A stretch of 45,555 nt of DNA from a virus, in the UHGV virus genome UHGV-2198558. One strand, 5' to 3'. Of this stretch, positions 1 through 44,248 are shown in pieces. The notes beneath the pieces were generated by a model. The model saw only the letters and a list, made by a program, of their open reading frames with translations. It was not told the origin of the DNA and made no database searches. A program made the position numbers and the translations under genes. Each line of letters starts with the position of its first letter. Positions within the stretch are counted from its first letter, which is position 1.

Positions 1-81
1 TGTCGGAGGTGCTTCTGGAAAATCAGAATTGATTCCAGCCGAAATCATATTTTCAAGAGGCTCAAATGTATTTGCACTCAT
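1..81 (-). CDS. Partial CDS (first 27 codons, MSANTFEPLENMISAGINSDFPEAPPT...) running off the left edge; downstream partner of the GHKL ATPase gene
   Basis: ATG at 81..79 overlaps the stop of the upstream GHKL gene (ATGA arrangement), open frame to position 1. Function unknown. Confidence 0.35.
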   Translation of the reverse strand, partial: MSANTFEPLENMISAGINSDFPEAPPT

Positions 82-1538
82 ATTCCGAACTCCTTTTTTA
101 TAGTTTTAACAGCATTAGGATAATTGATATAAGGTTCTATCGTTTCAAGCATTTCCAACATTCGCTTCTGAGCTTCAAGCGAAGATTGTACTGCAAGAAC
201 ATCCCTTATCATCTGTATTATTTCCTTTTCTGCTAGAATTTGGTCGTTTTTAATTTGCTCATCATTATTTAAATCTATATATAACTGATTTAACGGCAAA
301 GATGATTCAATTAAGTGAAGTAGACTCTCTAATAACTTTTGGGCAGACTCGGGATTGCTACGAATCTGTTCTACCACGGGGTGATCTCGGTTGATTTCAT
401 AATAAAAGCCACCTTTTGCTGCTTTCATCCGGTTCCATACGTGCGAAATTGAATCATCCGTTTCCTTTTTCCCTCGGAACACCCAAGTCCGTTTACTTTT
501 CTCTGCTATTTTCTCGATTATTAATTCAAGATTCTTTCGCACCTCCGCAGGCGGTAGAGCAGAGGATTTCTTTATATCCAATGTCCATAAATCATCCAAC
601 GTGTTGGGGATATCTACTTGGATACGGGCGAGCTTTGACAAGTCTCCCTTTCTCATCATTCTAAACCATGTACCCCATACAAGAAGGCGTTTATTTCTAT
701 AAACATAGAACCCCTGTTGTTTCCTTAATCCGTCCTTTCCGCCTAATCGCTTGATTTCCTCTGCCGTCATTTTTGATGTGTGTGGTAAAATATACGGTCT
801 GACAATTATTTTCTCCCCACGAATTTTAAGTATTTCATCATCCATAGGTTGCTGACTTTTACCAGATAAGAATGGATCAAACGGTACTATAGCAGTATTA
901 TTGATGCTAATTTTTATTTTTTTAAGTCCTGTTTCTCCAGATAGATACCTATGGAATACAAGTGAGATATGTTCTCTGACACCATCTATCTTTTTTCCAA
1001 GGACCTCTTCAAAGTTTATCTCACCTGATTTCAGCCGATCCAACTCCTGCCACACAATTAGTGTTCCAGATTCATATTGACACAAAGCTTCAAAATGCGG
1101 AACTGTATGCATCTCATCGGAGTCAAGTACAATTAATGACCATTGACCAGTTTGTGCAACATAGTCGATATCCCATCTTCTTCCTTCGATACTATTACCT
1201 TTCTTAGAGATAACAGTGAGGACTCGACACTGCGATAATGATGCAGTTTTTAATCCTAAACCAAATCTTCCAAGGTCATTTGTAGCTCTTATATCTAATG
1301 GATTTCTGCTTCCATATTGCATAGCTTTATCAATTTCAGGTGCATCCATACCGTTACCATTATCTAGCACAGCTATGTAAGCATCACCGACAGGGAAGAA
1401 AAATATATCTATATTCTCAGAGCAGGCAGCAATACTATTATCGATAATATCTGCTATTGCTGCATCTAACGTATAACCGATTGCCCTTGTAGATTCAATC
1501 AATGTGGGTGCATATGGCGGTAGTTCTATAGTGTGCAT
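78..1538 (-). CDS. GHKL-type (HATPase_c, MORC-like) ATPase
   Basis: N-terminal motifs IDNSIAA, LDNGNGMD, GRFGLGLK typical of the Bergerat ATP-binding fold. Start moved to ATG 1538 (MHTIELPP), which is preceded by GGAGGGAG at 6 nt spacing; the ORF-track start at 1589 lies upstream of the predicted transcription start. Confidence 0.75.
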   Translation of the reverse strand: MHTIELPPYAPTLIESTRAIGYTLDAAIADIIDNSIAACSENIDIFFFPVGDAYIAVLDNGNGMDAPEIDKAMQYGSRNPLDIRATNDLGRFGLGLKTASLSQCRVLTVISKKGNSIEGRRWDIDYVAQTGQWSLIVLDSDEMHTVPHFEALCQYESGTLIVWQELDRLKSGEINFEEVLGKKIDGVREHISLVFHRYLSGETGLKKIKISINNTAIVPFDPFLSGKSQQPMDDEILKIRGEKIIVRPYILPHTSKMTAEEIKRLGGKDGLRKQQGFYVYRNKRLLVWGTWFRMMRKGDLSKLARIQVDIPNTLDDLWTLDIKKSSALPPAEVRKNLELIIEKIAEKSKRTWVFRGKKETDDSISHVWNRMKAAKGGFYYEINRDHPVVEQIRSNPESAQKLLESLLHLIESSLPLNQLYIDLNNDEQIKNDQILAEKEIIQMIRDVLAVQSSLEAQKRMLEMLETIEPYINYPNAVKTIKKEFGI

Positions 1539-1594
1539 ATTTTCTCCCTCCAGTATAGATATAATTTGCGAACGGGTAAAATACCCCATAATCT

Positions 1595-1801: not shown

Positions 1802-2899
1802 TCACTCCGAATACTCTCTCGCCATCTCTTTTATCTTCTCAACCATCATATCGCTGATGCAGCTTCCGATCTTCTCTAAAGTGTCCTCGTCCATCAACCA
1901 GAAACCTTTCTTATTAAGGTGTGCATCAAGTATCTTATACATTTTCCACATATGCGGCTGATAACACTCTGGTATATCGCTGATGCAGGTCGGCTCTATG
2001 TTTTCATCGGGATAAACGCCGCCATTGATCTTCAGCTTACCCTCGTTAGCGGCATTTACAAATAATATCGTCAGATCGTCTGTGAGCAATTTTGCGAAGT
2101 AGTGGGCAAGCGCATACTCATCAATGGTGTGCGAATAGTAGTAAAGCGTTGCTTCAAGAAAATCCTCTAACTGATTTACTATCCCGCCCCATACATCTGT
2201 TGTCCAGTCGAGCATTTCCGGATGATAGCTGTCACCGCCGGAGCGAATCGTATAGCTGACATGGTTTGCGATTACTTCTGCGATAAACTCCTGCCAGAAC
2301 CAGTAGCCTTCCTGCTTTCGGCGTTCACTGCTGTATCTGCAGCCGTCGATTGCTGCATCATATAAAGGAGAATCATCTATCAGACCGGGTTCATTATAAC
2401 GGTGCAGATCATCTACCTCTGCATTGATAGTGTAGAAATGCCCAAGTTCATGCCAGAAGAAATGTTCAAAATAAACACGCAGCTCGAAGTCGTCATGCAC
2501 AGGCAAGTCTGCCACAAGCTCCCTGCGAATCAGAATCGCATTGCCTTTCTCACCGTGTATGTATTCCATGATGGAGTCAGGCGGTTCCTCTGTATGAGGA
2601 CAGCCGATGCTTTTGATGATCTTCTTTCTTGTCCGGGAATAACTGCTTGCAGTTGAAGTATACACCGGCGGAAACGGAATGCCGAGATCAGGCATGATCT
2701 GCTCAAACTGCATCTTTGCCATTTCAGCCCAGTAAAGAATCGTTGCTTCGGGTATCGGGCGCGGCTTTGGCAGTTCAGCAGGATGTGCGGTATCTTCGCC
2801 GTTAGTACGCTCGGCAAATTCAAGCATACTCTTTACAAAATCAAGCGGCAAGCCTTTTTCTTCTGCCAGCTTCTGTGCTTCGACTTCAAGTTCATTCAT
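1802..2899 (-). CDS. Hypothetical protein with HExxH motif (FFWHELGHF), possible zinc metallopeptidase
   Basis: 365-aa ORF; AGGAG 8 nt upstream of ATG 2899; own promoter and terminator. The HExxH assignment is a motif-level inference only. Confidence 0.6.
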   Translation of the reverse strand: MNELEVEAQKLAEEKGLPLDFVKSMLEFAERTNGEDTAHPAELPKPRPIPEATILYWAEMAKMQFEQIMPDLGIPFPPVYTSTASSYSRTRKKIIKSIGCPHTEEPPDSIMEYIHGEKGNAILIRRELVADLPVHDDFELRVYFEHFFWHELGHFYTINAEVDDLHRYNEPGLIDDSPLYDAAIDGCRYSSERRKQEGYWFWQEFIAEVIANHVSYTIRSGGDSYHPEMLDWTTDVWGGIVNQLEDFLEATLYYYSHTIDEYALAHYFAKLLTDDLTILFVNAANEGKLKINGGVYPDENIEPTCISDIPECYQPHMWKMYKILDAHLNKKGFWLMDEDTLEKIGSCISDMMVEKIKEMAREYSE

Positions 2900-3045: not shown

Positions 3046-3681
3046 TTATACAGCCTTTTCCATCACTACCTCAGTCAAAGCCCTCTTGCATATCTCAGCA
3101 GGATTCCCGTTCGGCTTTATCCAGCTTTCAACGTCCTCTCTACTCAGTATCACCGGCATTCGGTCGTGGATGCTTCTCAGTTCCTCGGTTGCGTCCCGTG
3201 TGATTACCGCAAACACCGGGCAATTAACTCCGTTTCTCTCCTCGATCCTATACAACAGCCCAGCAAGCAGCGTAGATTCGGCTCCTTTCGGCTGTATCAG
3301 GTATTTATCGCCAACCTTCTTCTTTTTCCCGTCCGGACTCCTGAAATGCTCCCATTCAAAGTACCAACTGCTCGGAATTACGCATCTACTTCGGAACCAT
3401 GAGTCCTTCCACATTTCCTTCTGGTCAGCCGTTTCGAGGCGGCAGTTCACGATTGGAGCATCGGTCGCGTCATGACTGAAACCCCAGAGCATCGGAAAAA
3501 CTTCCATTCTTCCGTCCTTATTCGGTGCTAAAACCGCAGCAACATCAGTCGGACGCAGTTCACCGGACATAAACAGCGGTTTGCCGAGTTTTACCATGAT
3601 AGTATTCGCTAGCTCCAGTTTCTGTGCCCGTGTGATCAGCGGAGCGAACTGAGCAGGCTCTACATAGAAGCGTGTACACAT
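3046..3681 (-). CDS. SOS response-associated peptidase (SRAP / YedK / DUF159 family)
   Basis: Begins MCTRF with Cys at position 2 (family hallmark), plus a conserved HDRMPVIL segment; 211 aa. Confidence 0.8.
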   Translation of the reverse strand: MCTRFYVEPAQFAPLITRAQKLELANTIMVKLGKPLFMSGELRPTDVAAVLAPNKDGRMEVFPMLWGFSHDATDAPIVNCRLETADQKEMWKDSWFRSRCVIPSSWYFEWEHFRSPDGKKKKVGDKYLIQPKGAESTLLAGLLYRIEERNGVNCPVFAVITRDATEELRSIHDRMPVILSREDVESWIKPNGNPAEICKRALTEVVMEKAV

Positions 3682-4258: not shown

Positions 4259-5131
4259 TTACTCCTCATCGTCCTCGTGCATGACTTCATATCGCTTGAT
4301 ATCTCTCTTGCTTGCAATGGAAGCGGGTTCAAGGATACCGAGAACGCGCCCGATCAGAGTGACATTGTCATATTCTGTGAATGTCATGGTATCATACTTA
4401 TCATTAAACGATACCAGACCTTCTTCCTCATATATCTTTATGTATGTACTGTTTCCAACCATGAAAGCGCCGACCTCATCGTATTGCAGCTCCGGACAGC
4501 CGGGATACTTCTCCACAAGAACAAGGTCGCCGTCATGATACTCAGGCTCCATACTGTCGCCGTTGACAGGAAACACAAGGTCTGCCTGCCGTATTGCTGT
4601 GTTCGTATTCGGATACAGATAGATCGGTGTTCCGTTGTCCTCAAACTCCGCCCCGCCGTCAAAGCCTGCTGCAAGCCCCTTGTCGCAGAGTGTCAGTTTG
4701 ATGATCTCCGGGAAGCTGCCGACAGTCTCTGCCGCTTCAAGCGAGGATAGCAGACTGTCCATTGCAAGCTGGTGCGGATACGACAGTCCACGGTATCTCT
4801 CTACCATAGACTTTTCCTTATCAGTATAGGTATCTTGCTTGTTTTCGATGCCATATAGTTCATACAGCGTGATACCAAGTGCGTCACATAGCTTAGGAAC
4901 AACGCTGAAATCCGGGCGGGTTCTTCCGTTCTCCCAGTTACTGATAGCATTTGAGGTCACGCCGATTTTTTCTGCAATCACTTTCTGATCTAATTTTAGA
5001 CGCTCCCTGTAGTATTTGATGCGACCGCCAACCGCGTGAGCGTCCTTACGGTGGGCAGGATCAGAGATGTTACTCTTAATATCCTTGCCTCCCTGTGAGA
5101 CTGAGATATTCGGTTTCTTACGCTGTTTCAT
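4259..5131 (-). CDS. Prophage repressor, CI/LexA-like (XRE-type HTH plus S24 self-cleaving peptidase domain)
   Basis: HTH segment IKYYRERLKLDQKVIAEKIGVTSNAISNWENG; S24 motifs VNGDSMEPEY and GDLVLV. Start set to ATG 5131 (AAGGAG 9 nt upstream); the ORF-track start at 5149 is a TTG. Confidence 0.85.
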   Translation of the reverse strand: MKQRKKPNISVSQGGKDIKSNISDPAHRKDAHAVGGRIKYYRERLKLDQKVIAEKIGVTSNAISNWENGRTRPDFSVVPKLCDALGITLYELYGIENKQDTYTDKEKSMVERYRGLSYPHQLAMDSLLSSLEAAETVGSFPEIIKLTLCDKGLAAGFDGGAEFEDNGTPIYLYPNTNTAIRQADLVFPVNGDSMEPEYHDGDLVLVEKYPGCPELQYDEVGAFMVGNSTYIKIYEEEGLVSFNDKYDTMTFTEYDNVTLIGRVLGILEPASIASKRDIKRYEVMHEDDEE

Positions 5132-5291
5132 TACAAAGCTCTCCTTCAAGAATGTATGGGATAGTCAATCCTCAAAACGAACAAATATTCTTATTGAAAT
5201 CTGTGCAACCCTACAAAGTTTATCAAAGACTTTTCAACGCTGAAAACGTTAGAAATGCGAAATTTGGCGTAGGCATTGCATCTTTGATCAC

Positions 5292-8994: not shown

Positions 8995-9363
8995 ATGCTT
9001 ATGCCTATGGAAAACAGAGTCCCGAAAAACCGCTACAACGGCGGTGCCGCAACCGATGCCGACAAGCAGGACAAGCCCGATGTGCTGAAGATGATCGAAA
9101 CGGCAATGGACAAGCGTGCGGCGGGCATCGCACAGACGGTCACGGATATGTTCCGTTTCATGTCGATGGCATCTGCCATGCTCCCGAATATGGAGATGGA
9201 TGTCGGTGTGTTCCGTCTGAAGATCGACGATGACGGCATCTTTTTCGAGATCAACCATCCGTTCCGCAAGCGCAAGCAGCGTGATATCTCCAATGACTGC
9301 TGTGCCGAGGAGCCGGACAACTATGATGATGACGAGGAGGGACTGATTTATGACGGAGACTGA
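8995..9363 (+). CDS. Hypothetical protein with acidic C-terminus
   Basis: GAAAGGAA RBS then ATG 8995; C-terminus EEPDNYDDDEEGLIYDGD. Confidence 0.55.
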   Translation: MLMPMENRVPKNRYNGGAATDADKQDKPDVLKMIETAMDKRAAGIAQTVTDMFRFMSMASAMLPNMEMDVGVFRLKIDDDGIFFEINHPFRKRKQRDISNDCCAEEPDNYDDDEEGLIYDGD

Positions 9364-34566: not shown

Positions 34567-34621
34567 GTGACACAACGGAAGGGCAAACGCCCACCGAAAA
34601 ACCGAATCGGAGGATACCAAA

Positions 34622-35566
34622 ATGACTGAGAAAACCGCACAGCAGATCAACAGAATGAAGGAGCAGACCATCGGGGTTGAGATCGAGATGAACAACATCA
34701 CCCGCAAGGCTGCCGCAAAGCTCGCCGCCGACTTCTTCGGCACGAACCGCTACGAGGACACGGCCTGCCGCAACGGCTACGAAACCTACAGTGCTTGGGA
34801 CGCACAGGGACGCGAGTGGAAATTCCAGAAGGACGTCAGCATCGCAGGCCCCGACAGCGAAAAGTGCGAACTGGTCACACCGATCCTGCACTACGCAGAC
34901 ATCGAAACCCTGCAGGAGCTTGTGAGAAGGCTCAGAAAGGCAGGAGCGCGCAGTGATTACACGCGGGGATGTGGAGTCCACTGCCACATTGGAGCCCAGG
35001 GACACACACCGCAGAGCCTCAGAAACCTCGCAAACCTTATGGCAAGCCACGAAACCCTGATCGCCGAGGCAATCAGAGTAGACCAGAGCAGAATGCACCG
35101 CTACTGCAGAACAGTTGACCCGAGATTCCTTGAACAGCTCAACCGCAAAAAGCCCACCACGATGGCACAGCTTGCGGACATCTGGTACGGCGCACAGGGC
35201 TGCGAATACGGCAGAACCCACCACTACAACGACAGCCGCTATCACATGCTCAACCTCCACGCTACCTTCACCAAAGGCACGGTCGAGTTCAGACTTTTCC
35301 AGTTCGCACCGCCTTCCAACGGCAAGCAGAACGGGCTCCACGCAGGCAAGCTCAAGAGCTACATTCAGCTCTGCCTCGCAATGAGCCAGATGGCAAAGGA
35401 CCTGCGGAGCGCCAGCCCCAAGGAACAGCAGAAGGAAAACAAAAAGTTCGCCATGCGGACTTGGCTGATGAGAATGGGATTCATCGGGGATGAATTCGCA
35501 ACGGCGAGAGAGGTCCTCACTGAGAACCTTACGGGCGACAACAGCTTCCGCTTCGGCAGATCTTAA
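34622..35566 (+). CDS. Amidoligase_2-family enzyme (putative peptide/metabolite ligase)
   Basis: N-terminal GVEIE motif; 314 aa; immediately upstream of an AIG2-like cyclotransferase gene, the conserved neighbourhood I recall for this family in Firmicutes phages. Confidence 0.65.
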   Translation: MTEKTAQQINRMKEQTIGVEIEMNNITRKAAAKLAADFFGTNRYEDTACRNGYETYSAWDAQGREWKFQKDVSIAGPDSEKCELVTPILHYADIETLQELVRRLRKAGARSDYTRGCGVHCHIGAQGHTPQSLRNLANLMASHETLIAEAIRVDQSRMHRYCRTVDPRFLEQLNRKKPTTMAQLADIWYGAQGCEYGRTHHYNDSRYHMLNLHATFTKGTVEFRLFQFAPPSNGKQNGLHAGKLKSYIQLCLAMSQMAKDLRSASPKEQQKENKKFAMRTWLMRMGFIGDEFATAREVLTENLTGDNSFRFGRS

Positions 35567-35831
35567 AGGCCTGCCCTTCGGGGCGGAAGAACAAGCGGAA
35601 CGGCACGGCGGCGCACACAGCCGCCACGGTCTCGGCTCTCGCCTCGGTCGGTGCTTCTGCTTCGCAGAGGTTGCCACTGGCAACCCGCACCCCCGTGTGT
35701 GGCGGAAAGGGTATCCTCCGAATCGGTATCCCATCTCAGTCAACCGCGCCACACAGCGCAAATGTAGGCAAGGCATAAAATGCACAACATACGGCACAGA
35801 ATCGCCCTCGATGATCTGTTCATTTACCCGC

Positions 35832-35860
35832 TTGATAATGCCGCCGAAATGAGTTAACAT
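35832..35860 (+). promoter_or_regulatory. Cassette promoter 3 (diverged leader)
   Basis: TTGATA, 17-nt spacer, TAACAT. Confidence 0.45.
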
Positions 35861-35899
35861 AGCACTACCGCAAGGAAAAAACGCAAAGGAGAACATAGC

Positions 35900-36367
35900 A
35901 TGAACAAGAAAAAATACTACATAGCCTACGGCAGCAACCTCAACATCCGCCAGATGCGATTCCGCTGCTCAGGCGCAAAGCCCATCGGCATTTCCGCGAT
36001 TCCTGACTACGAACTGCTCTTCAAGGGCAGCAAGACGGGAGCGTACCTCACCATCGAGCCGAAGGACGGCGGGCTTGTTCCGGTCGCCGTGTGGGAAGTG
36101 ACAGCCGACGATGAGAAGCACCTCGACATCTACGAGGGCTACCCGAACTTCTACTACAAGAAGGAAGTCCGCCTGCCAATCAGGCTGGCAAACGGCAAGA
36201 CCAAAAAGGTCACGGCATTTGTCTACATCATGCACGAGGAGCGTGAGATTGCGATCCCGTCAATGACCTACATCCGCACCTGCGAGGAAGGCTACCGCAA
36301 CTTCGGCTTCGACACCAAGTTCCTTGATGCCGCCTACGAGATCAGCGCAAAGGAGGTACAGCGATGA
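35900..36367 (+). CDS. AIG2-like / gamma-glutamyl cyclotransferase family protein
   Basis: YIAYGSNLNIRQM N-terminal motif; AAAGGAG RBS; 155 aa. Confidence 0.75.
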   Translation: MNKKKYYIAYGSNLNIRQMRFRCSGAKPIGISAIPDYELLFKGSKTGAYLTIEPKDGGLVPVAVWEVTADDEKHLDIYEGYPNFYYKKEVRLPIRLANGKTKKVTAFVYIMHEEREIAIPSMTYIRTCEEGYRNFGFDTKFLDAAYEISAKEVQR

Positions 36368-36564
36368 AAGACCGCAACAAAGAGCCGCACATCTGCCCGA
36401 AATGCGGGCAGGCGTACACCGCCCGACCAGCTCTTTCCCGCGTGGATAACAGCCCAATCTGCCCCGACTGCGGAACGCGTGAAGCGCTTGAAAGCATCGG
36501 CGTCGGACGCGAGGAACAGGACAAGATTCTCGGCATCATCCACGAGAAGTACGAAGGCGAATAA
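36364..36564 (+). CDS. Small zinc-ribbon protein
   Basis: ATGA overlap with the AIG2 stop; CPKCG...CPDCG. Confidence 0.5.
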   Translation: MKDRNKEPHICPKCGQAYTARPALSRVDNSPICPDCGTREALESIGVGREEQDKILGIIHEKYEGE

Positions 36565-38515: not shown

Positions 38516-38898
38516 ATGACAAAGAAGGAAATGAAAGCCGCAGTTGCCAAGCTGAAGATGCTGCAGAACGGCAAAGCCGCCCTTGAGGGAATGACCGAAG
38601 CGGACTGCCTTGAGCTTTTCGGGATCAGCAGAGCGCAGGCACTTGCAAACACAAACGCCGCCCTTGCCAAAACCGAGCAGGAGATTTNNNNNNNNNNNNN
38701 NNNNNNNNNNNNGAGCATCCGCTGACAGGCATCGACAAACAGCTCTTCGAGATCGCAGCAAAGCACCTGATCACGGTGCAGGAGCGCGGAGACCTTGAAG
38801 CCCGCCACTGCGACAGCGAGGACTTCATCGAGGGTTCGGTCTGGGGGCTGGAAGCCGCCCTCAAGGATGCCTACGAGGCAGGACGCAAGAGCAAGTAA
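38516..38898 (+). CDS. Hypothetical protein interrupted by an assembly gap
   Basis: CGGAGGT RBS and ATG 38516; coding resumes after the N-run and ends at TAA 38896-38898. Frame across the gap cannot be determined. Confidence 0.4.
38688..38712. other. Assembly gap (25 N)
   Basis: Run of n characters in the sequence. Confidence 0.99.
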
Positions 38899-38960: not shown

Positions 38961-39140
38961 ATGGATACATACGCACAGCTTGAAATGCTGACCGCAGTCA
39001 TCGCAAACCTGTCGGCCACGGGAACATGGACGGAGCGAGAAGTGATGGAAACGCTGCTGGATGTCTTTGAACCGAAGGAGCTTGAACAGCTCGGCTACGG
39101 CGACTGCGTGAACGCATACTTGGAAGAGTACGGCGGATAG
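38961..39140 (+). CDS. Small acidic protein (59 aa), below the ORF-track length cutoff
   Basis: AAGGAGGAAA RBS 7 nt before ATG 38961; MDTYAQLEMLTAVIANLS...EEYGG, stop TAG 39138-39140. Confidence 0.5.
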   Translation: MDTYAQLEMLTAVIANLSATGTWTEREVMETLLDVFEPKELEQLGYGDCVNAYLEEYGG

Positions 39141-39197
39141 CGACGACACACGCACCACGTTGCCTCGTGTGGGGCGGTGCCGGGGAGATGCGTACAG

Positions 39198-39240
39198 CTT
39201 GCCCCTGCGAAAAGCCGCCTTACACGGCGCGTTCTGGCGC
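39198..39240. repeat. Cassette boundary repeat
   Basis: cttgcccctgcgaaaagccgccttacacggcgcgttctggcgc. Confidence 0.5.
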
Positions 39241-39310
39241 GTCCTATACGATGTACAATTCCGCCCGACTTCCCGCCTCATGTTTGTCACATTTATTTTG
39301 CAGACAGACG

Positions 39311-39339
39311 TGGACTTTTCTGCGAAAAGACGGTAATAT
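39311..39339 (+). promoter_or_regulatory. Cassette promoter 7
   Basis: TGGACT, 17-nt spacer, TAATAT. Confidence 0.5.
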
Positions 39340-39386
39340 GTGACTACCGCAAGAGAAGCGGAATCAATCAAAAGGAGCGAATCTAC

Positions 39387-39740
39387 ATGAAAATTCTGGT
39401 ATGCGAACCCGGCAAGCACCCCTACGTCAAGGACATCGAGTCGGGGCTGGAGAACCTTCAGCACGAGGTGGACGGACTGATTCAGGCCCTCTACCCATTT
39501 TCCGAAGAGGCGGCTGTTGTGTGCAACGAAGAAGGGCTGTTCCGCGATGACCTCGAATGGAACAGAACGGTCGATCCCTATGGTCCGATCAAGGGAACAT
39601 TCTTCATTTGTGGGCTCGGCTTTGAAGATTTTACAGGACTGACCGATGAACAGATCGAAAAGTACACTAAGCTCTTCTGGCCTCCTGAGCTTTTCATCCC
39701 GACACCGAACGGCATGGTGGTGCTTCACATTGTGGAATGA
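39387..39740 (+). CDS. DUF3846-like protein
   Basis: AAAGGAG RBS; MKILVCEPGKHPYVKDIE...YPF...VVCNEEG...GTFFICG pattern, recalled from mobile-element proteins of Firmicutes. Confidence 0.55.
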   Translation: MKILVCEPGKHPYVKDIESGLENLQHEVDGLIQALYPFSEEAAVVCNEEGLFRDDLEWNRTVDPYGPIKGTFFICGLGFEDFTGLTDEQIEKYTKLFWPPELFIPTPNGMVVLHIVE

Positions 39741-39843
39741 CCGCAACAGGGGCAGGGCTTCGGCTCTGCTCCGCACTATTCCCCGGTCATAATGTACACA
39801 ACTGAACGCCGAAAAATGCAGAAATGATCGTGATTACTCACGC

Positions 39844-39872
39844 TTGATAATGTAGGCAAGAAGAGTTATACT
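39844..39872 (+). promoter_or_regulatory. Cassette promoter 8
   Basis: TTGATA, 17-nt spacer, TATACT; leader hairpin variant gggcggaaagccc. Confidence 0.5.
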
Positions 39873-39929
39873 GTGTACAACGGAAGGGCGGAAAGCCCAG
39901 CCGAAAACGAAAATGCGGAGGTACACACC

Positions 39930-40109
39930 ATGAAAACGAAGCAGGAACTGATCGAGAAGGCAAAGAAAGAGTGGGGCGAGACTTGGAACGAGGGCATGAT
40001 CGAGTACGATGCCGAGTACAACGAGTACATCGTCTGGGTAGGCAAGCCGGACATCTACAAAGCCTTCTTCGATGCCGACACCCTCAGATGCATTGGCACG
40101 AAGTGCTGA
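39930..40109 (+). CDS. Small hypothetical protein (59 aa)
   Basis: GCGGAGGT RBS; followed by a ccgccc-ttcg-gggcgg hairpin. Confidence 0.5.
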   Translation: MKTKQELIEKAKKEWGETWNEGMIEYDAEYNEYIVWVGKPDIYKAFFDADTLRCIGTKC

Positions 40110-40164
40110 GAACAACCGCCGCCCTTCGGGGCGGCACAACACCAATACTAAGGAGGACATTTAC

Positions 40165-40437
40165 ATGAGCGAGAACACAGAAAAGCGCGATGCAGCCGAA
40201 GAACTAGAACTTACCGATGCACAGGCAGACCGCAACGATGACATCTACGAGGCAGCTTTTGAATTCTGCAAGGTGCTGACCGAGAACCCCGACCTCGAAT
40301 GGGACATGGCGTTCCTCGGTGAGATCGCCGACCTTGCCGCTGGCATCATGACCGAGCAGGGACACAAGGTGCGGTTCCCCAGTGTGGTCACCGAGCAGGA
40401 CGGCACGCAGTACATTGAAGAATACTACGGCGGCTGA
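40165..40437 (+). CDS. Small highly acidic protein (90 aa)
   Basis: AAGGAGG RBS before ATG 40165; roughly 23 Asp/Glu against about 6 basic residues. Confidence 0.55.
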   Translation: MSENTEKRDAAEELELTDAQADRNDDIYEAAFEFCKVLTENPDLEWDMAFLGEIADLAAGIMTEQGHKVRFPSVVTEQDGTQYIEEYYGG

Positions 40438-40523
40438 TCGGCAAAACGGAGCAGTCCTTCTGCGGAGGGGCTGTTCCACGCCACGTTCGCTTGTGTGGGG
40501 GGCTTACGGCTTTCTGCGGATAT

Positions 40524-40667: not shown

Positions 40668-40723
40668 GTGTACAACGGAACGGGAAACCGAGCCGAAAAC
40701 TACGAAAGAACGAGGTAAACACT

Positions 40724-41077: not shown

Positions 41078-41108
41078 TGCAGATTTTTTGAGAAAAGGAG
41101 TGATGCGG

Positions 41109-41582
41109 ATGGCTCAGAGAGGCAGAAAACCGACGCCGACAGCAATCAAGGAACTGGAAGGCAATCCCGGAAAACGACCGCTGAATGATGCAGAGCCGAA
41201 GCCGGAACGCAAGGCACCGCCCTGTCCGAAGTGGCTGGAGCCCGAAGCAAAAAAGGAATGGCGCAGGCTGTCAAAGCAACTGGAGCAGATTGGTGTGCTG
41301 ACCGAGGTCGATCAGGCGGCATTCGCATCCTACTGTCAGGCATACGCACGATGGAAAGAAGCCGAGGAATTCATGACCCAGCACGGCACGATCGTAAAAA
41401 CAAAATCAGGTTACTGGCAGCAGGTTCCGCAGGTATCCATTGCGCAAACTTATCTGAAGATCATGAACAAGATCGCAGAGCAGTTTGGCCTGACCCCGGC
41501 GGCAAGAAGCCGTATCACTGCCGGCGCAGATATGAAAAACGCTGCCGTTGACGATATGGATGAACTTCTCGGAGGTGGCTGA
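41109..41582 (+). CDS. terS: Terminase small subunit (P27-family-like)
   Basis: MAQRGRKPTPTAIKELEGNPGKRPLN N-terminus; AAGGAG RBS 8 nt before ATG 41109; stop overlaps the terL start. Confidence 0.8.
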   Translation: MAQRGRKPTPTAIKELEGNPGKRPLNDAEPKPERKAPPCPKWLEPEAKKEWRRLSKQLEQIGVLTEVDQAAFASYCQAYARWKEAEEFMTQHGTIVKTKSGYWQQVPQVSIAQTYLKIMNKIAEQFGLTPAARSRITAGADMKNAAVDDMDELLGGG

Positions 41583-44248
41583 TGGCGAGAACGGCAAAGG
41601 CAAGAGAAAGACCTGCCAACTATCCGAAACTGAAGGATTATAAACCGACACGCTTTATGCTGCCGGAATCGCACTACGATGCGGCAAAGGCTGACCGAGC
41701 TGTGCGGTTCATCGAGAATCTCTGCCATACCAAAGGACGCTGGGCAGGCAAACCGTTCTGGCTGCTTCCGTGGCAGGAACAGATCATCCGGGATATTTTC
41801 GGCATCGTCAAAGAGGACGATATGCGGCAATTTCGTACCGCCTATGTCGAAATTCCAAAGAAAAATGGGAAGCAGCTTGCACTGGATACACCGATCCCGA
41901 CTCCGCAGGGATTCACCAATATGGGAGATCTGAAGGTCGGAGATACAGTATTCGATGAAAACGGCATTCCGTGCCATGTGGTTGCGAAAAGTCCTGTGGA
42001 TGATACAGAGCAAGCCTACAAGCTGACCTTCAAGGACGGCACCTCGATCATTGCCGGGGAAAGGCATCTGTGGAACTGTCAGTATATTTACGGCAAACGC
42101 AAGGATGTTCTCTGGACGACCGGCGAGATCTATCGCAGGACAACGGAATACAGACAGCGTTTTTCCGACAGACCACAGACAAAGCGGGATTCCCTTATCC
42201 GAATTCCGGTGTGCGGTGTCCTTCAGACAGAAGCGGCAGTTTTACCGATTGATCCGTATCTGTACGGCTACTGGCTCGGAAACGGTAATGTGACCATGCC
42301 GGAGATCACTGTTCGGACGGAGGATGTCGAGGATATCATCTCGAATATTCCGTATAAGGTACACAACCGTTATCCGCAGAAATGCGGCGGCAGTGAGATC
42401 ATAAAGTACAATGAACTGAAAGCAGTACTACTTGACAGCTTCCGTGAAAAGAAGATCCGACCAGAATATCTGAGGGCATCCGCAGAGCAGAGATGGGCAT
42501 TACTGCAAGGGCTTATGGATTCGGACGGCTGTATCGGCGAACGCAAAGGGCAAAGTGTGTATGTCACAACGCTGCGAGAGCTGGCGCTTTCCGTCAGAGA
42601 ACTGCTGTGGTCACTCGGCATCAAAAATGCAGTGAAATGTGAGCCTTCTACACGGCATGGGTGGCCGACCGGCGAGATTTTGTATATCGTCCGTTTTACA
42701 ACCTTTGATGGCCAACCGACATCAAGGCTTAAACGCAAAAATACACGCACACAGGCGCGGTTAAAGGAAACTCGCTCCTGTTTTCATTATCTGCTGGATA
42801 TTCAACCTGTAAATCATCCTGTAAAAATGCAGTGCATTCAGGTGGACAGTCCGAGTCACCAATATCTCGCAGGACCGTCATTTGTGCCTACGCACAACAG
42901 TGAGCTTGCAGCGGCAATTGCACTGTATCTGCTCTACGCCGACAACGAGCCGTCTGCTGAGGTCTACGGCGCTGCTGCTGATCGTGGGCAGGCATCCATT
43001 GTATTCGATGTCGCCAAAAGAATGGTTGAGATGACACCGGCACTTCTGAAACGCTCAAAAATCATGGCGGCGACAAAGCGTCTGGTGAATTACAGTAATG
43101 TTGGCTTTTATCAGGTGCTTTCAGCGGAAGTCGGTACAAAGCACGGATTGAATGTATCCGGTCTGGTTTTGGATGAACTTCATGCCCAACCGAACCGCAG
43201 CCTTGTGGATGTTCTCACAAAGGGTTCCGGTGATGCCCGTACTCAGCCGCTGTACTTCCTGATCACAACCGCCGGAACGGATCGCAACAGCATCTGCTAC
43301 GAGTATCACACGAAAGCAAAAGATATTCTGGACGGCAGGCGCATTGATCCGTCCTTCTATCCTGTGATCTACGGCTTGAACGATGATGACGACTGGAACG
43401 CAGAGGAGTCATGGTATAAGGCAAATCCCTCGCTCGGATACACTATCGCCATCGACCGAGTCCGCGATGCTCACCGGGAAGCCCTTACAAATCCCGCTGA
43501 AGAAAATGTATTCCGTCAGCTGAGGCTTGACCAGTGGGTAGGCAGTGCGGTGGCATGGATTCCGGAGCATATCTACGACAGGGGCAATCTTCCGATCGAC
43601 CTCGAAAAGCTCCGGGGACGGGAGTGCTACGCAGGTCTTGACCTATCCAGCACATCGGATATCACGGCATTTGTGCTGGTGTTCCCTCCGCTGCATGACG
43701 GCGAGAAATACATCGTTGTCCCGCACTTCTGGCTGCCGAGAGAAACGCTCGATTTGCGAGTACGGCGAGACCATGTTCCCTACGATGTATGGGAGCGCAT
43801 GGGATTATTTCATATCACCGAGGGCAATGTGGTCGATTACAATTTCGTGCGGAAAACGATCAACGAGCTGCACACGATGTACAACATCAAGGAAATTGCT
43901 GCCGACCGCTGGAATGCCACACAGCTTATCACAGACCTTGAGGGAGACGGATTTACCGTTGTTCCGATGGGTATGGGCTTCAAGGATATGTCCCCGCCGA
44001 TGAAGGAACTGTACAAGCTCATACTCGAGGGGCAGTTTATCCACGGCGGCAACCCTGTACTCCGCTGGATGGCAGGAAATGTGGTCGCTGAAATTGATGC
44101 AGCGGAGAACATCAAACCAAGTAAAAAGAAAAGTACAGAAAAGATTGACGGTATCGTGGCATGGATCATGGCACTTGACCGCTGCATCCGCCACGAAATG
44201 CAGGGCAGTGTCTATGACGAACCCGGCCACGATCTTGTGGTCATCTGA
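41582..44248 (+). CDS. terL: Terminase large subunit interrupted by an intein
   Basis: 888 aa against a typical size near 550; ATPase P-loop region YVEIPKKNGK / SELAAAIALYLLYAD split by a 342-aa insertion; C-terminal nuclease-domain-like sequence. Confidence 0.85.
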   Translation: MARTAKARERPANYPKLKDYKPTRFMLPESHYDAAKADRAVRFIENLCHTKGRWAGKPFWLLPWQEQIIRDIFGIVKEDDMRQFRTAYVEIPKKNGKQLALDTPIPTPQGFTNMGDLKVGDTVFDENGIPCHVVAKSPVDDTEQAYKLTFKDGTSIIAGERHLWNCQYIYGKRKDVLWTTGEIYRRTTEYRQRFSDRPQTKRDSLIRIPVCGVLQTEAAVLPIDPYLYGYWLGNGNVTMPEITVRTEDVEDIISNIPYKVHNRYPQKCGGSEIIKYNELKAVLLDSFREKKIRPEYLRASAEQRWALLQGLMDSDGCIGERKGQSVYVTTLRELALSVRELLWSLGIKNAVKCEPSTRHGWPTGEILYIVRFTTFDGQPTSRLKRKNTRTQARLKETRSCFHYLLDIQPVNHPVKMQCIQVDSPSHQYLAGPSFVPTHNSELAAAIALYLLYADNEPSAEVYGAAADRGQASIVFDVAKRMVEMTPALLKRSKIMAATKRLVNYSNVGFYQVLSAEVGTKHGLNVSGLVLDELHAQPNRSLVDVLTKGSGDARTQPLYFLITTAGTDRNSICYEYHTKAKDILDGRRIDPSFYPVIYGLNDDDDWNAEESWYKANPSLGYTIAIDRVRDAHREALTNPAEENVFRQLRLDQWVGSAVAWIPEHIYDRGNLPIDLEKLRGRECYAGLDLSSTSDITAFVLVFPPLHDGEKYIVVPHFWLPRETLDLRVRRDHVPYDVWERMGLFHITEGNVVDYNFVRKTINELHTMYNIKEIAADRWNATQLITDLEGDGFTVVPMGMGFKDMSPPMKELYKLILEGQFIHGGNPVLRWMAGNVVAEIDAAENIKPSKKKSTEKIDGIVAWIMALDRCIRHEMQGSVYDEPGHDLVVI
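41873..42898 (+). mobile_element. Intein (342 aa) in TerL, non-canonical Gln at position 1, with LAGLIDADG-like motifs
   Basis: Block A-like QLALDTPIPT, block B-like GERHLW, block F-like MQCIQVD, block G FVPTHN followed by Ser; internal LYGYWLGNGN and LLQGLMDSDGCI. Confidence 0.6.

Follow-up and report, generated by a model that had tools for sequence, protein, structure and literature searches.

A family of small acidic phage proteins with a predicted new fold, encoded in a variable cassette array, as a candidate for decoy-type anti-defence function

What does a small, strongly acidic protein do when it is encoded near the end of an array of short genes, just ahead of the terminase genes of a temperate phage? 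An earlier note on this DNA proposed that such proteins could be DNA mimics of the Ocr or ArdA kind, or anti-CRISPR proteins. The window, that is, the whole stretch of 45,555 nucleotides analysed here (UHGV virus genome UHGV-2198558), carries the gene in question, which we call acid90. Its product had been described as a 90-aa protein with about a quarter Asp and Glu and few basic residues, and this description holds: 23 residues are acidic (25.6%) and 6 are Lys or Arg (6.7%), against a background of 14.4% and 11.8%, respectively, in the proteome of the window (40 curated genes). With a pI of 4.05 and a net charge of −17 the protein is conspicuously acidic, and its charge per residue, −0.19, is the most negative among the 40 curated genes. 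The composition of this single sequence, taken alone, is only modestly significant (binomial P = 0.004, uncorrected, for at least 23 acidic residues out of 90), and it is because the acidity is conserved across the family that it goes beyond chance. Our results also show that acid90 is a real gene under purifying selection, since it is preceded by a strong ribosome-binding site, its median dN/dS is 0.13 (62 pairwise comparisons among 12 distinct 90-codon gene sequences), and it has 324 relatives at 50% clustering.

The window represents a temperate phage, of the Oscillospiraceae type or from related Clostridia. Its left part encodes a LexA-like repressor (4259–5149, minus strand) and a sigma-like gene; the replication module comprises a DUF2800 nuclease, an Enc34-type SSB, a family-A DNA polymerase, an SNF2 helicase and a D5-type primase, and is followed by genes for a SAM synthetase, NrdD, a ParB-methylase, a C5-methylase and an amidoligase. 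Relatives of this phage are found in genomes of Oscillospiraceae, Lachnospiraceae and other Clostridia, mostly metagenome-assembled and some from the rumen, and the nearest annotated phages share only about 45% identity with it in their DUF2800 protein. The array of small genes, with spacers of 190–290 nt, extends from about 34.5 to 41.0 kb, directly after the DNA-modification module (SAM synthetase, ParB-methylase and C5-methylase). Past the array come the gene for the terminase small subunit (41103–41582; Terminase_4 in relatives) and that for the large subunit (41582–44248), which has 888 aa versus 542–546 aa in relatives. The large subunit of the window probably carries an intein, as indicated by the weak LAGLIDADG_3 match seen in those relatives whose large subunit also has 888 aa; other relatives have a free-standing HNH_3 gene between the genes for the two terminase subunits. 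At the other extreme of the window the GC content is lower (38–46%), and this left end encodes a HATPase_c_3 protein (78–1589, minus strand), an unannotated 365-aa acidic protein of net charge −33 (1802–2899, minus strand) and a SRAP peptidase (3046–3681, minus strand); these genes, next to the prophage repressor, may represent a defence-type or host-flank island.

The array is a mosaic of about 30 small-gene families, whose combinations change between relatives, and its members include DUF3846 and, in relatives, DUF4313. It is headed by the amidoligase_2, gamma-glutamyl cyclotransferase and Zn-ribbon genes (34622–36564), and the same three genes head the array in divergent Lachnospiraceae phages (L021, L023 and L047); the gene after the amidoligase, at 35900–36367, codes for 155 aa, and its counterparts in relatives carry GGACT (gamma-glutamyl cyclotransferase family). 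A 25-N scaffold gap at 38688–38712 breaks a gene that in relatives codes for a 121-aa DUF6900 protein. Nothing useful was found in the literature on DUF3846, DUF7678, DUF6809, DUF6900, DUF7698, DUF4313 or DUF3849.

Seven sigma-70-like promoters were found in the array, ending at about 35860, 36750, 37425, 38460, 39335, 39872 and 40667, with the layout TTGATA/TGGACT, 17 nt, TAATAT/TATAGT. A leader of the form ACAACGGAAGGGC...GCCC.CCG comes after five of these seven promoters; ahead of the amidoligase gene, at 34572, stands a sixth copy of the motif. In all, ACAACGGAAGGGC was counted 6 times versus 1.1 expected, and in five cassette leaders the hairpins fold with z scores of −2.1 to −3.8. In the leader copy at 40672 the pairing is kept with different bases. 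An Rfam scan of the whole window found no known RNA family, the leader hairpin included; this hairpin could be an mRNA-stabilising 5′ stem-loop or the site of a regulator. The promoter that ends at 39872 is the sole promoter-like site upstream of acid90, which has no promoter of its own, and it probably drives a two-gene unit formed by the 39930–40109 gene and acid90 (Table 1). The product of the first gene of this unit has no Pfam match and only weak PHROG matches (E above 0.1); the gene precedes acid90 in four loci (L027, L028, L030 and L062), and in other relatives acid90 comes after a spacer of about 250 nt. The stem-loop past the acid90 stop codon marks the 3′ boundary of the cassette and could serve as a terminator or as an mRNA stabiliser. 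Similar hairpins also trail other cassette genes.

Table 1. Coordinates in the window of acid90, of the elements of its cassette and of the other genes and segments discussed in the text
Feature	Position	Strand	Description
acid90	40165..40437	+	ATG...TGA ORF, 90 aa, strongly acidic product
Ribosome-binding site of acid90, AAGGAGG	40150..40156	+	Read from sequence; 8 nt 5′ of the ATG
Sigma-70-like promoter, TTGATA-17-TATACT	39844..39872	+	Promoter scan, 10/12 matches; aligns with six other cassette promoters
Two-step 5′ leader hairpin, CGG..GGGC-loop-GCCC..CCG	39881..39903	+	Conserved, common to cassette transcripts
59-aa gene upstream of acid90	39930..40109	+	ORF; net charge of product −3
Intercistronic GC-rich hairpin	40118..40135	+	7 bp, UUCG loop, no U-tract; fold −17.3 kcal/mol, z −3.4
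13-bp stem-loop	40448..40477	+	10 nt past the acid90 stop, no U-tract; 63-nt stretch −30.4 kcal/mol, z −2.9
Segment deleted in relatives	39068..40374		1307 bp, blastn breakpoints; flanks 93–99% identical (L056–L058)
Second acidic cassette protein	38961..39140	+	59 aa; 20.3% Asp+Glu, 2 Lys+Arg, net charge −10
Third protein, with acidic tail	9001..9363	+	About 120 aa; likely start 9001, not 8995

Strong negative charge is a trait of the acid90 family and is not peculiar to the copy in the window. A word-indexed search gave 41 close homologues, none of them with a functional name, and a profile search with the domain, performed in a space of 1.84 billion representatives at 50% clustering, gave 324 proteins at E ≤ 1e-3 and 167 at E ≤ 1e-10. 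In 177 homologues of the domain (about 80 aa) the net charge averages −13.9 (range −29 to −2) and the pI averages 4.23. Twelve alignment positions (15, 19, 25, 26, 33, 40, 45, 47, 53, 56, 79 and 86) have an acidic residue in 60% of the members or more, and the acidic positions are kept in homologues down to about 30% identity. The family consensus reads EELELxDxQxxRxDEIYNAxxExCKVLTENxxLEWDMxxIGEIADxAAxxLxxxGxKVRxPxVVTxxDGxQxIEEY; residues E15, R23, D25 and P72 are kept in about 90% of the members or more, and Q20, A30, W46, G52, D56 and G66 in about 70–90%. The earlier note had recognised no family for this protein, and our searches agree with that: hmmscan against Pfam-A returned 0 families with E up to 1, and there was no match in PHROGs, NCBIfam or PADLOC. 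A tblastn search against 50,697 phage and 72,556 plasmid records also gave no match, and the sequence-profile search of the PDB returned a single chance match (E 0.4). acid90 defines an uncatalogued domain family with a confident structural model.

This model was obtained with AlphaFold2 from an alignment of 117 sequences (pLDDT 90.4, pTM 0.76), while with 21 sequences the model was mediocre (pLDDT 69). In it, residues 1 to about 14 are disordered, and they are followed by a helix (18–39), a second helix (48–64) and a beta-hairpin (73–76/82–85), so that acid90 is predicted to be a compact domain of about 75 aa that folds on its own, and not a low-complexity tail. The first helix, of about 22 residues, would be about 33 Å long, which is roughly one turn of B-DNA. 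In the sequence of both helices acidic residues recur at i, i+3/4 and i+7, opposite the hydrophobic positions, and for that reason the helices are likely to be amphipathic, with their acidic faces outward. When the predicted fold was compared with the PDB no structural relative was found, Ocr and ArdA included, and the model thus represents a new predicted fold that matches no solved structure.

acid90 is accessory and dispensable. In a survey for which the terminase small subunit (identity of 86% or higher) served as anchor, we examined 65 IMG/VR loci whose sequence reaches 1.5 kb or more upstream; 17 have the gene at full length, 1 has part of it and 47 (72%) lack it. A deletion variant was also found, in which a 1307-bp segment is lost (Table 1). 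The deletion takes the 3′ end of the 59-aa gene at 38961–39140, the DUF3846 gene, the 39930 gene and most of acid90, and it joins in frame the first 36 codons of the former to the last 19 of acid90, which gives a hybrid protein of 55 aa (P0041) that is indexed in 33 blocks of the collection. At the junction, between GATGTCTT and CCCCAGTG, the microhomology is just 2 nt (TT). Other near-identical phages are also without the DUF3846, 59-aa and acid90 genes, and in them no hybrid was formed. Since acid90 is absent from or deleted in close relatives, it is unnecessary for phage replication, packaging and morphogenesis. The features of a moron or accessory cassette are found at this locus: the promoter at 39844–39872, the hairpin at 40448–40477, full-length presence in 17/65 loci and a deletion variant. 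The array resembles morons and anti-defence islands in its small genes, its sigma-70-like promoters, its flanking hairpins and its cassette-wise gain and loss in near-identical phages; it differs from the latter in that its anti-defence role is putative.

The genomic contexts of the family are diverse. In this phage group, when acid90 is present, the gene order is acid90, DUF7678, sometimes DUF6809, and the terminase small subunit, and the homologues of large phages carry an N-terminal Zn-ribbon and sit between two unknown genes. In L048/L049 (4064–5886; a 239-kb viral contig) the homologue comes directly after the genes for an RtcB RNA ligase and an RF-1/PrfH-like release factor; these neighbours, read as a ribosome/RNA-repair pair, suggest a possible counter-defence against ribotoxins. 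In one bacterial contig the homologue lies beside an EcoRI-type methylase. No partner gene conserved across the divergent contexts of acid90 was found.

The majority of the family consists of stand-alone proteins or Zn-ribbon fusions, although 61 of the 145 new representatives of the domain have at least 140 aa, and in several proteins the domain is present twice, in tandem. Besides the Zn-ribbon, it is fused to a DnaB_C/KaiC-like ATPase, to a guanylate-kinase-like domain, to LPD16, to DUF3849 and to unannotated regions, each informative fusion being a single representative. LPD16 is a domain of the ‘polyvalent proteins’ used by conjugative elements in conflicts with their hosts (PMC5512222), and fusions of this type suggest that the acid90 domain may be one of the portable modules that mobile elements use for conflict or establishment. 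Found both alone and, in single representatives, within multidomain proteins of mobile elements, this short domain may be comparable to the domains of polyvalent proteins (Iyer et al. 2017, PMC5512222), with one relative each carrying LPD16 and DUF3849 and with DUF3846 and, in relatives, DUF4313 among its array neighbours; in contrast to them, it has no match in Pfam, though Pfam includes a model for LPD16, and most of its members are solo.

We tentatively propose that acid90 could be a stoichiometric decoy, which would block the nucleic-acid-binding surface of a host protein and would thus be a DNA mimic in the broad sense. The surface of the protein, held strongly negative by selection and built from two amphipathic helices packed on a beta-hairpin, with a floppy acidic N-terminal tail, would occupy the positively charged surface with which the host protein binds nucleic acids. 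The target may be a restriction enzyme or another defence enzyme, or else another DNA- or RNA-binding protein, and acid90 would act alone, with no conserved partner gene. In this mechanism we infer the binding to a host protein, the nucleic-acid-binding nature of that target and the counter-defence outcome. A decoy is considered because acid90 is small, folded and alone, is acidic by position, is dispensable and cassette-borne, lies next to methylases that serve restriction evasion, and is shared with conflict-type proteins. Its composition also comes near that of Ocr, the best-studied mimic. Small acidic inhibitors of 56–92 aa and low pI, such as Ugi, phi29 p56, T4 Arn and SPO1 Gp46, block one host protein in a stoichiometric manner, and each of them has its own fold, so a new fold would be typical of the class. 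Against the decoy count the negative outcome of the sequence and fold searches for known DNA mimics and anti-defence proteins, the size of the predicted monomer (about 75 aa), which is short next to mimics of 24 and 42 bp, and the presence of non-acidic residues (Q20, R23, W46, G52, G66 and P72) among the best conserved ones, which point to a specific fold or binding site and not to a generic phosphate mimic.

Acidity itself is a poor discriminator for a DNA mimic, because most of the small proteins of the array are acidic. The four most acidic genes of the window (40 curated genes) are all cassette genes, and net charges in the array reach −13 in the DUF3846 protein, −12 in a 127-aa protein and −10 in the 38961–39140 protein. 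Either many of the cassettes code for decoys, or the trait is partly a compositional habit. Still more acidic cassette proteins are found in relatives: one of 114 aa has a net charge of −28 to −30 and one of 164 aa a net charge of −30 (L011, 3841–4185 and 295–789, and many other loci). Neither has a Pfam match, and by composition alone they would be stronger DNA-mimic candidates than acid90.

These observations also bear on an explanation that we consider improbable, in which acid90 is a generic docking or solubility module of mobile-element proteins that inhibits nothing, its acidity being a compositional habit. The variety of fusion partners among which the domain appears and the charge of the cassette proteins here and in relatives agree with such a module. 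However, specific acidic positions are conserved down to about 30% identity, the dN/dS of 0.13 implies selection on a defined function, and the protein is usually a stand-alone one.

Could acid90 act instead on the phage itself? It might be a regulator, a chaperone or an adaptor for a phage protein (for example the terminase small subunit, with a net charge of +5, or a replication protein), tuning packaging or late development, and its constant place near the end of the array, ahead of the terminase small subunit, in the closest phages is in line with this. So is locus L050, where the homologue comes after a gene that resembles a primase by eye, although Pfam gives no match for that gene. Nevertheless, the 47 phages of the survey that lack acid90 have a terminase small subunit at least 86% identical, near-identical phages have deleted it, and the distant homologues lie away from terminase genes; a role of this kind is thus unlikely. 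A function coupled to the terminase was rejected in view of the absence of the gene from 72% of the close relatives and by the different contexts of the distant ones.

The more specific reading advanced in the earlier note was that of a mimic of the Ocr or ArdA type. As a true mimic of double-stranded DNA, acid90 would block methyltransferases of type I restriction-modification or BREX systems at their DNA groove. Of the 116 residues of Ocr (T7 gene 0.3; PF08684), 34 are acidic and 6 basic, and about 15 of its acidic positions are conserved (PMC3439906). acid90, with about 12 such positions, shows the same acidic excess and a comparable charge composition, and like Ocr it is a small phage protein of extreme acidity, with few basic residues, encoded by a non-essential accessory gene; it also adjoins methyltransferases that themselves serve restriction evasion. 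ArdA (Tn916 Orf18; PF07275) is likewise an acidic and modular protein of mobile elements of Firmicutes, and in some relatives the tandem copies or multidomain fusions of the acid90 domain could build a longer mimic, as the three domains of ArdA do. In contrast, Ocr forms an elongated dimer, wholly helical, with the shape of about 24 bp of bent B-DNA, and ArdA has three domains that form a rod of 70 x 20 Å, whose dimer mimics about 42 bp, whereas acid90 is modelled as a single compact helix-helix-hairpin domain of about 75 aa. Kinship with either protein found no support, as there was no Pfam match to PF08684 or PF07275 and no fold match in the PDB, and we regard a mimic of this specific type as improbable. 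The proposal of an anti-CRISPR protein fares no better at the level of the locus, which has no HTH (aca) neighbour; the neighbours are DUF7678 and a 59-aa protein. In the libraries searched, which were Pfam, PHROGs, NCBIfam and PADLOC, no homology of acid90 to Acr proteins was found.

Returning to the decoy, its broadest version would be that the acid90 family (at least 324 clusters at 50% identity) represents widespread anti-defence DNA mimics of new fold, encoded in a cassette array that enters the cell first. If packaging is of the cos-site type and starts near the gene for the terminase small subunit, the array just upstream would be packaged last and injected first. The leading regions of conjugative plasmids are anti-defence regions, and the array would be their phage counterpart. 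We give this general version little credence.

If the acid90 family does disable a host defence protein or a DNA-binding protein, the small set of DNA-mimic inhibitors would gain a member of new fold. Studies of defence and counter-defence in gut and rumen Clostridia, of which, to our knowledge, almost nothing has been tested, would gain an entry point, and candidate counter-defence genes could be read off the array. Otherwise, acid90 is one more small acidic phage protein, a common kind. What has been gained is a domain family with a structural model, its accessory status, and the removal of the 8995–9363 gene from the list of candidates.

That the amidoligase and the gamma-glutamyl-cyclotransferase have acid90 as their substrate or partner, for instance by ligating or tagging it via its C-terminal Gly-Gly, is highly improbable: the amidoligase, cyclotransferase and Zn-ribbon genes do precede the array here and in divergent Lachnospiraceae phages with acid90, and both acid90 and the 38961–39140 protein end in YGG, but no amidoligase gene lies within about 7–8 kb of the homologues in other phages, and many phages have the amidoligase and lack acid90. 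A ubiquitin- or Pup-like C-terminal tag (GG, GGQ/GGE) is largely refuted by the variable C-termini of the family alignment, which include GG, GD, GE, N, TEGR and longer tails.

The note had grouped acid90 with two other proteins as small acidic cassette proteins, and this grouping is correct for the 90-aa protein and for the 59-aa protein at 38961–39140, which are uncatalogued and variably present. The 59-aa protein is acidic, as had been said (Table 1), and comes second to acid90 in negative charge per residue among the 40 curated genes. It has 58 close homologues, all of them annotated at most as ‘hypothetical protein’, with a family mean net charge of −9.3, and its gene shows the same accessory behaviour as acid90. 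It may be considered a weaker DNA-mimic candidate of the same kind, and for both proteins a DNA-mimic or anti-defence function is a plausible and reasonable proposal, judging from composition and location. Both end in YGG and both match P0041. That they are paralogues is ruled out, since they share no BLASTP similarity and P0041 is a deletion chimera.

The grouping does not apply to the third protein (8995–9363), which is encoded by a fixed gene of the replication operon. It is acidic, as the note stated, in that Asp and Glu make up 21% of it, yet it also has 16 Lys and Arg, and its charge is limited to the C-terminal tail: in its family the net charge is −8.5 in the last 20 residues versus −0.2 in the rest. 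This family has more than 220 homologue clusters, an invariant N-terminal motif NRxPKNRYN and an invariant C-terminal motif EEGL(I/L)YDGD. The synteny is constant (sigma-like gene, 9001–9363 gene, 164-aa gene, DUF2800, Enc34-type SSB and PolA): the 9001–9363 gene heads the replication operon in a fixed position, and it overlaps the start of the next gene. As a fixed operon gene with its charge confined to the tail, it was dropped as a DNA-mimic candidate. In single-stranded-DNA-binding proteins, acidic docking tails recruit partners, and by analogy the 9001–9363 product may be an accessory protein of replication or recombination with an SSB-like docking tail.
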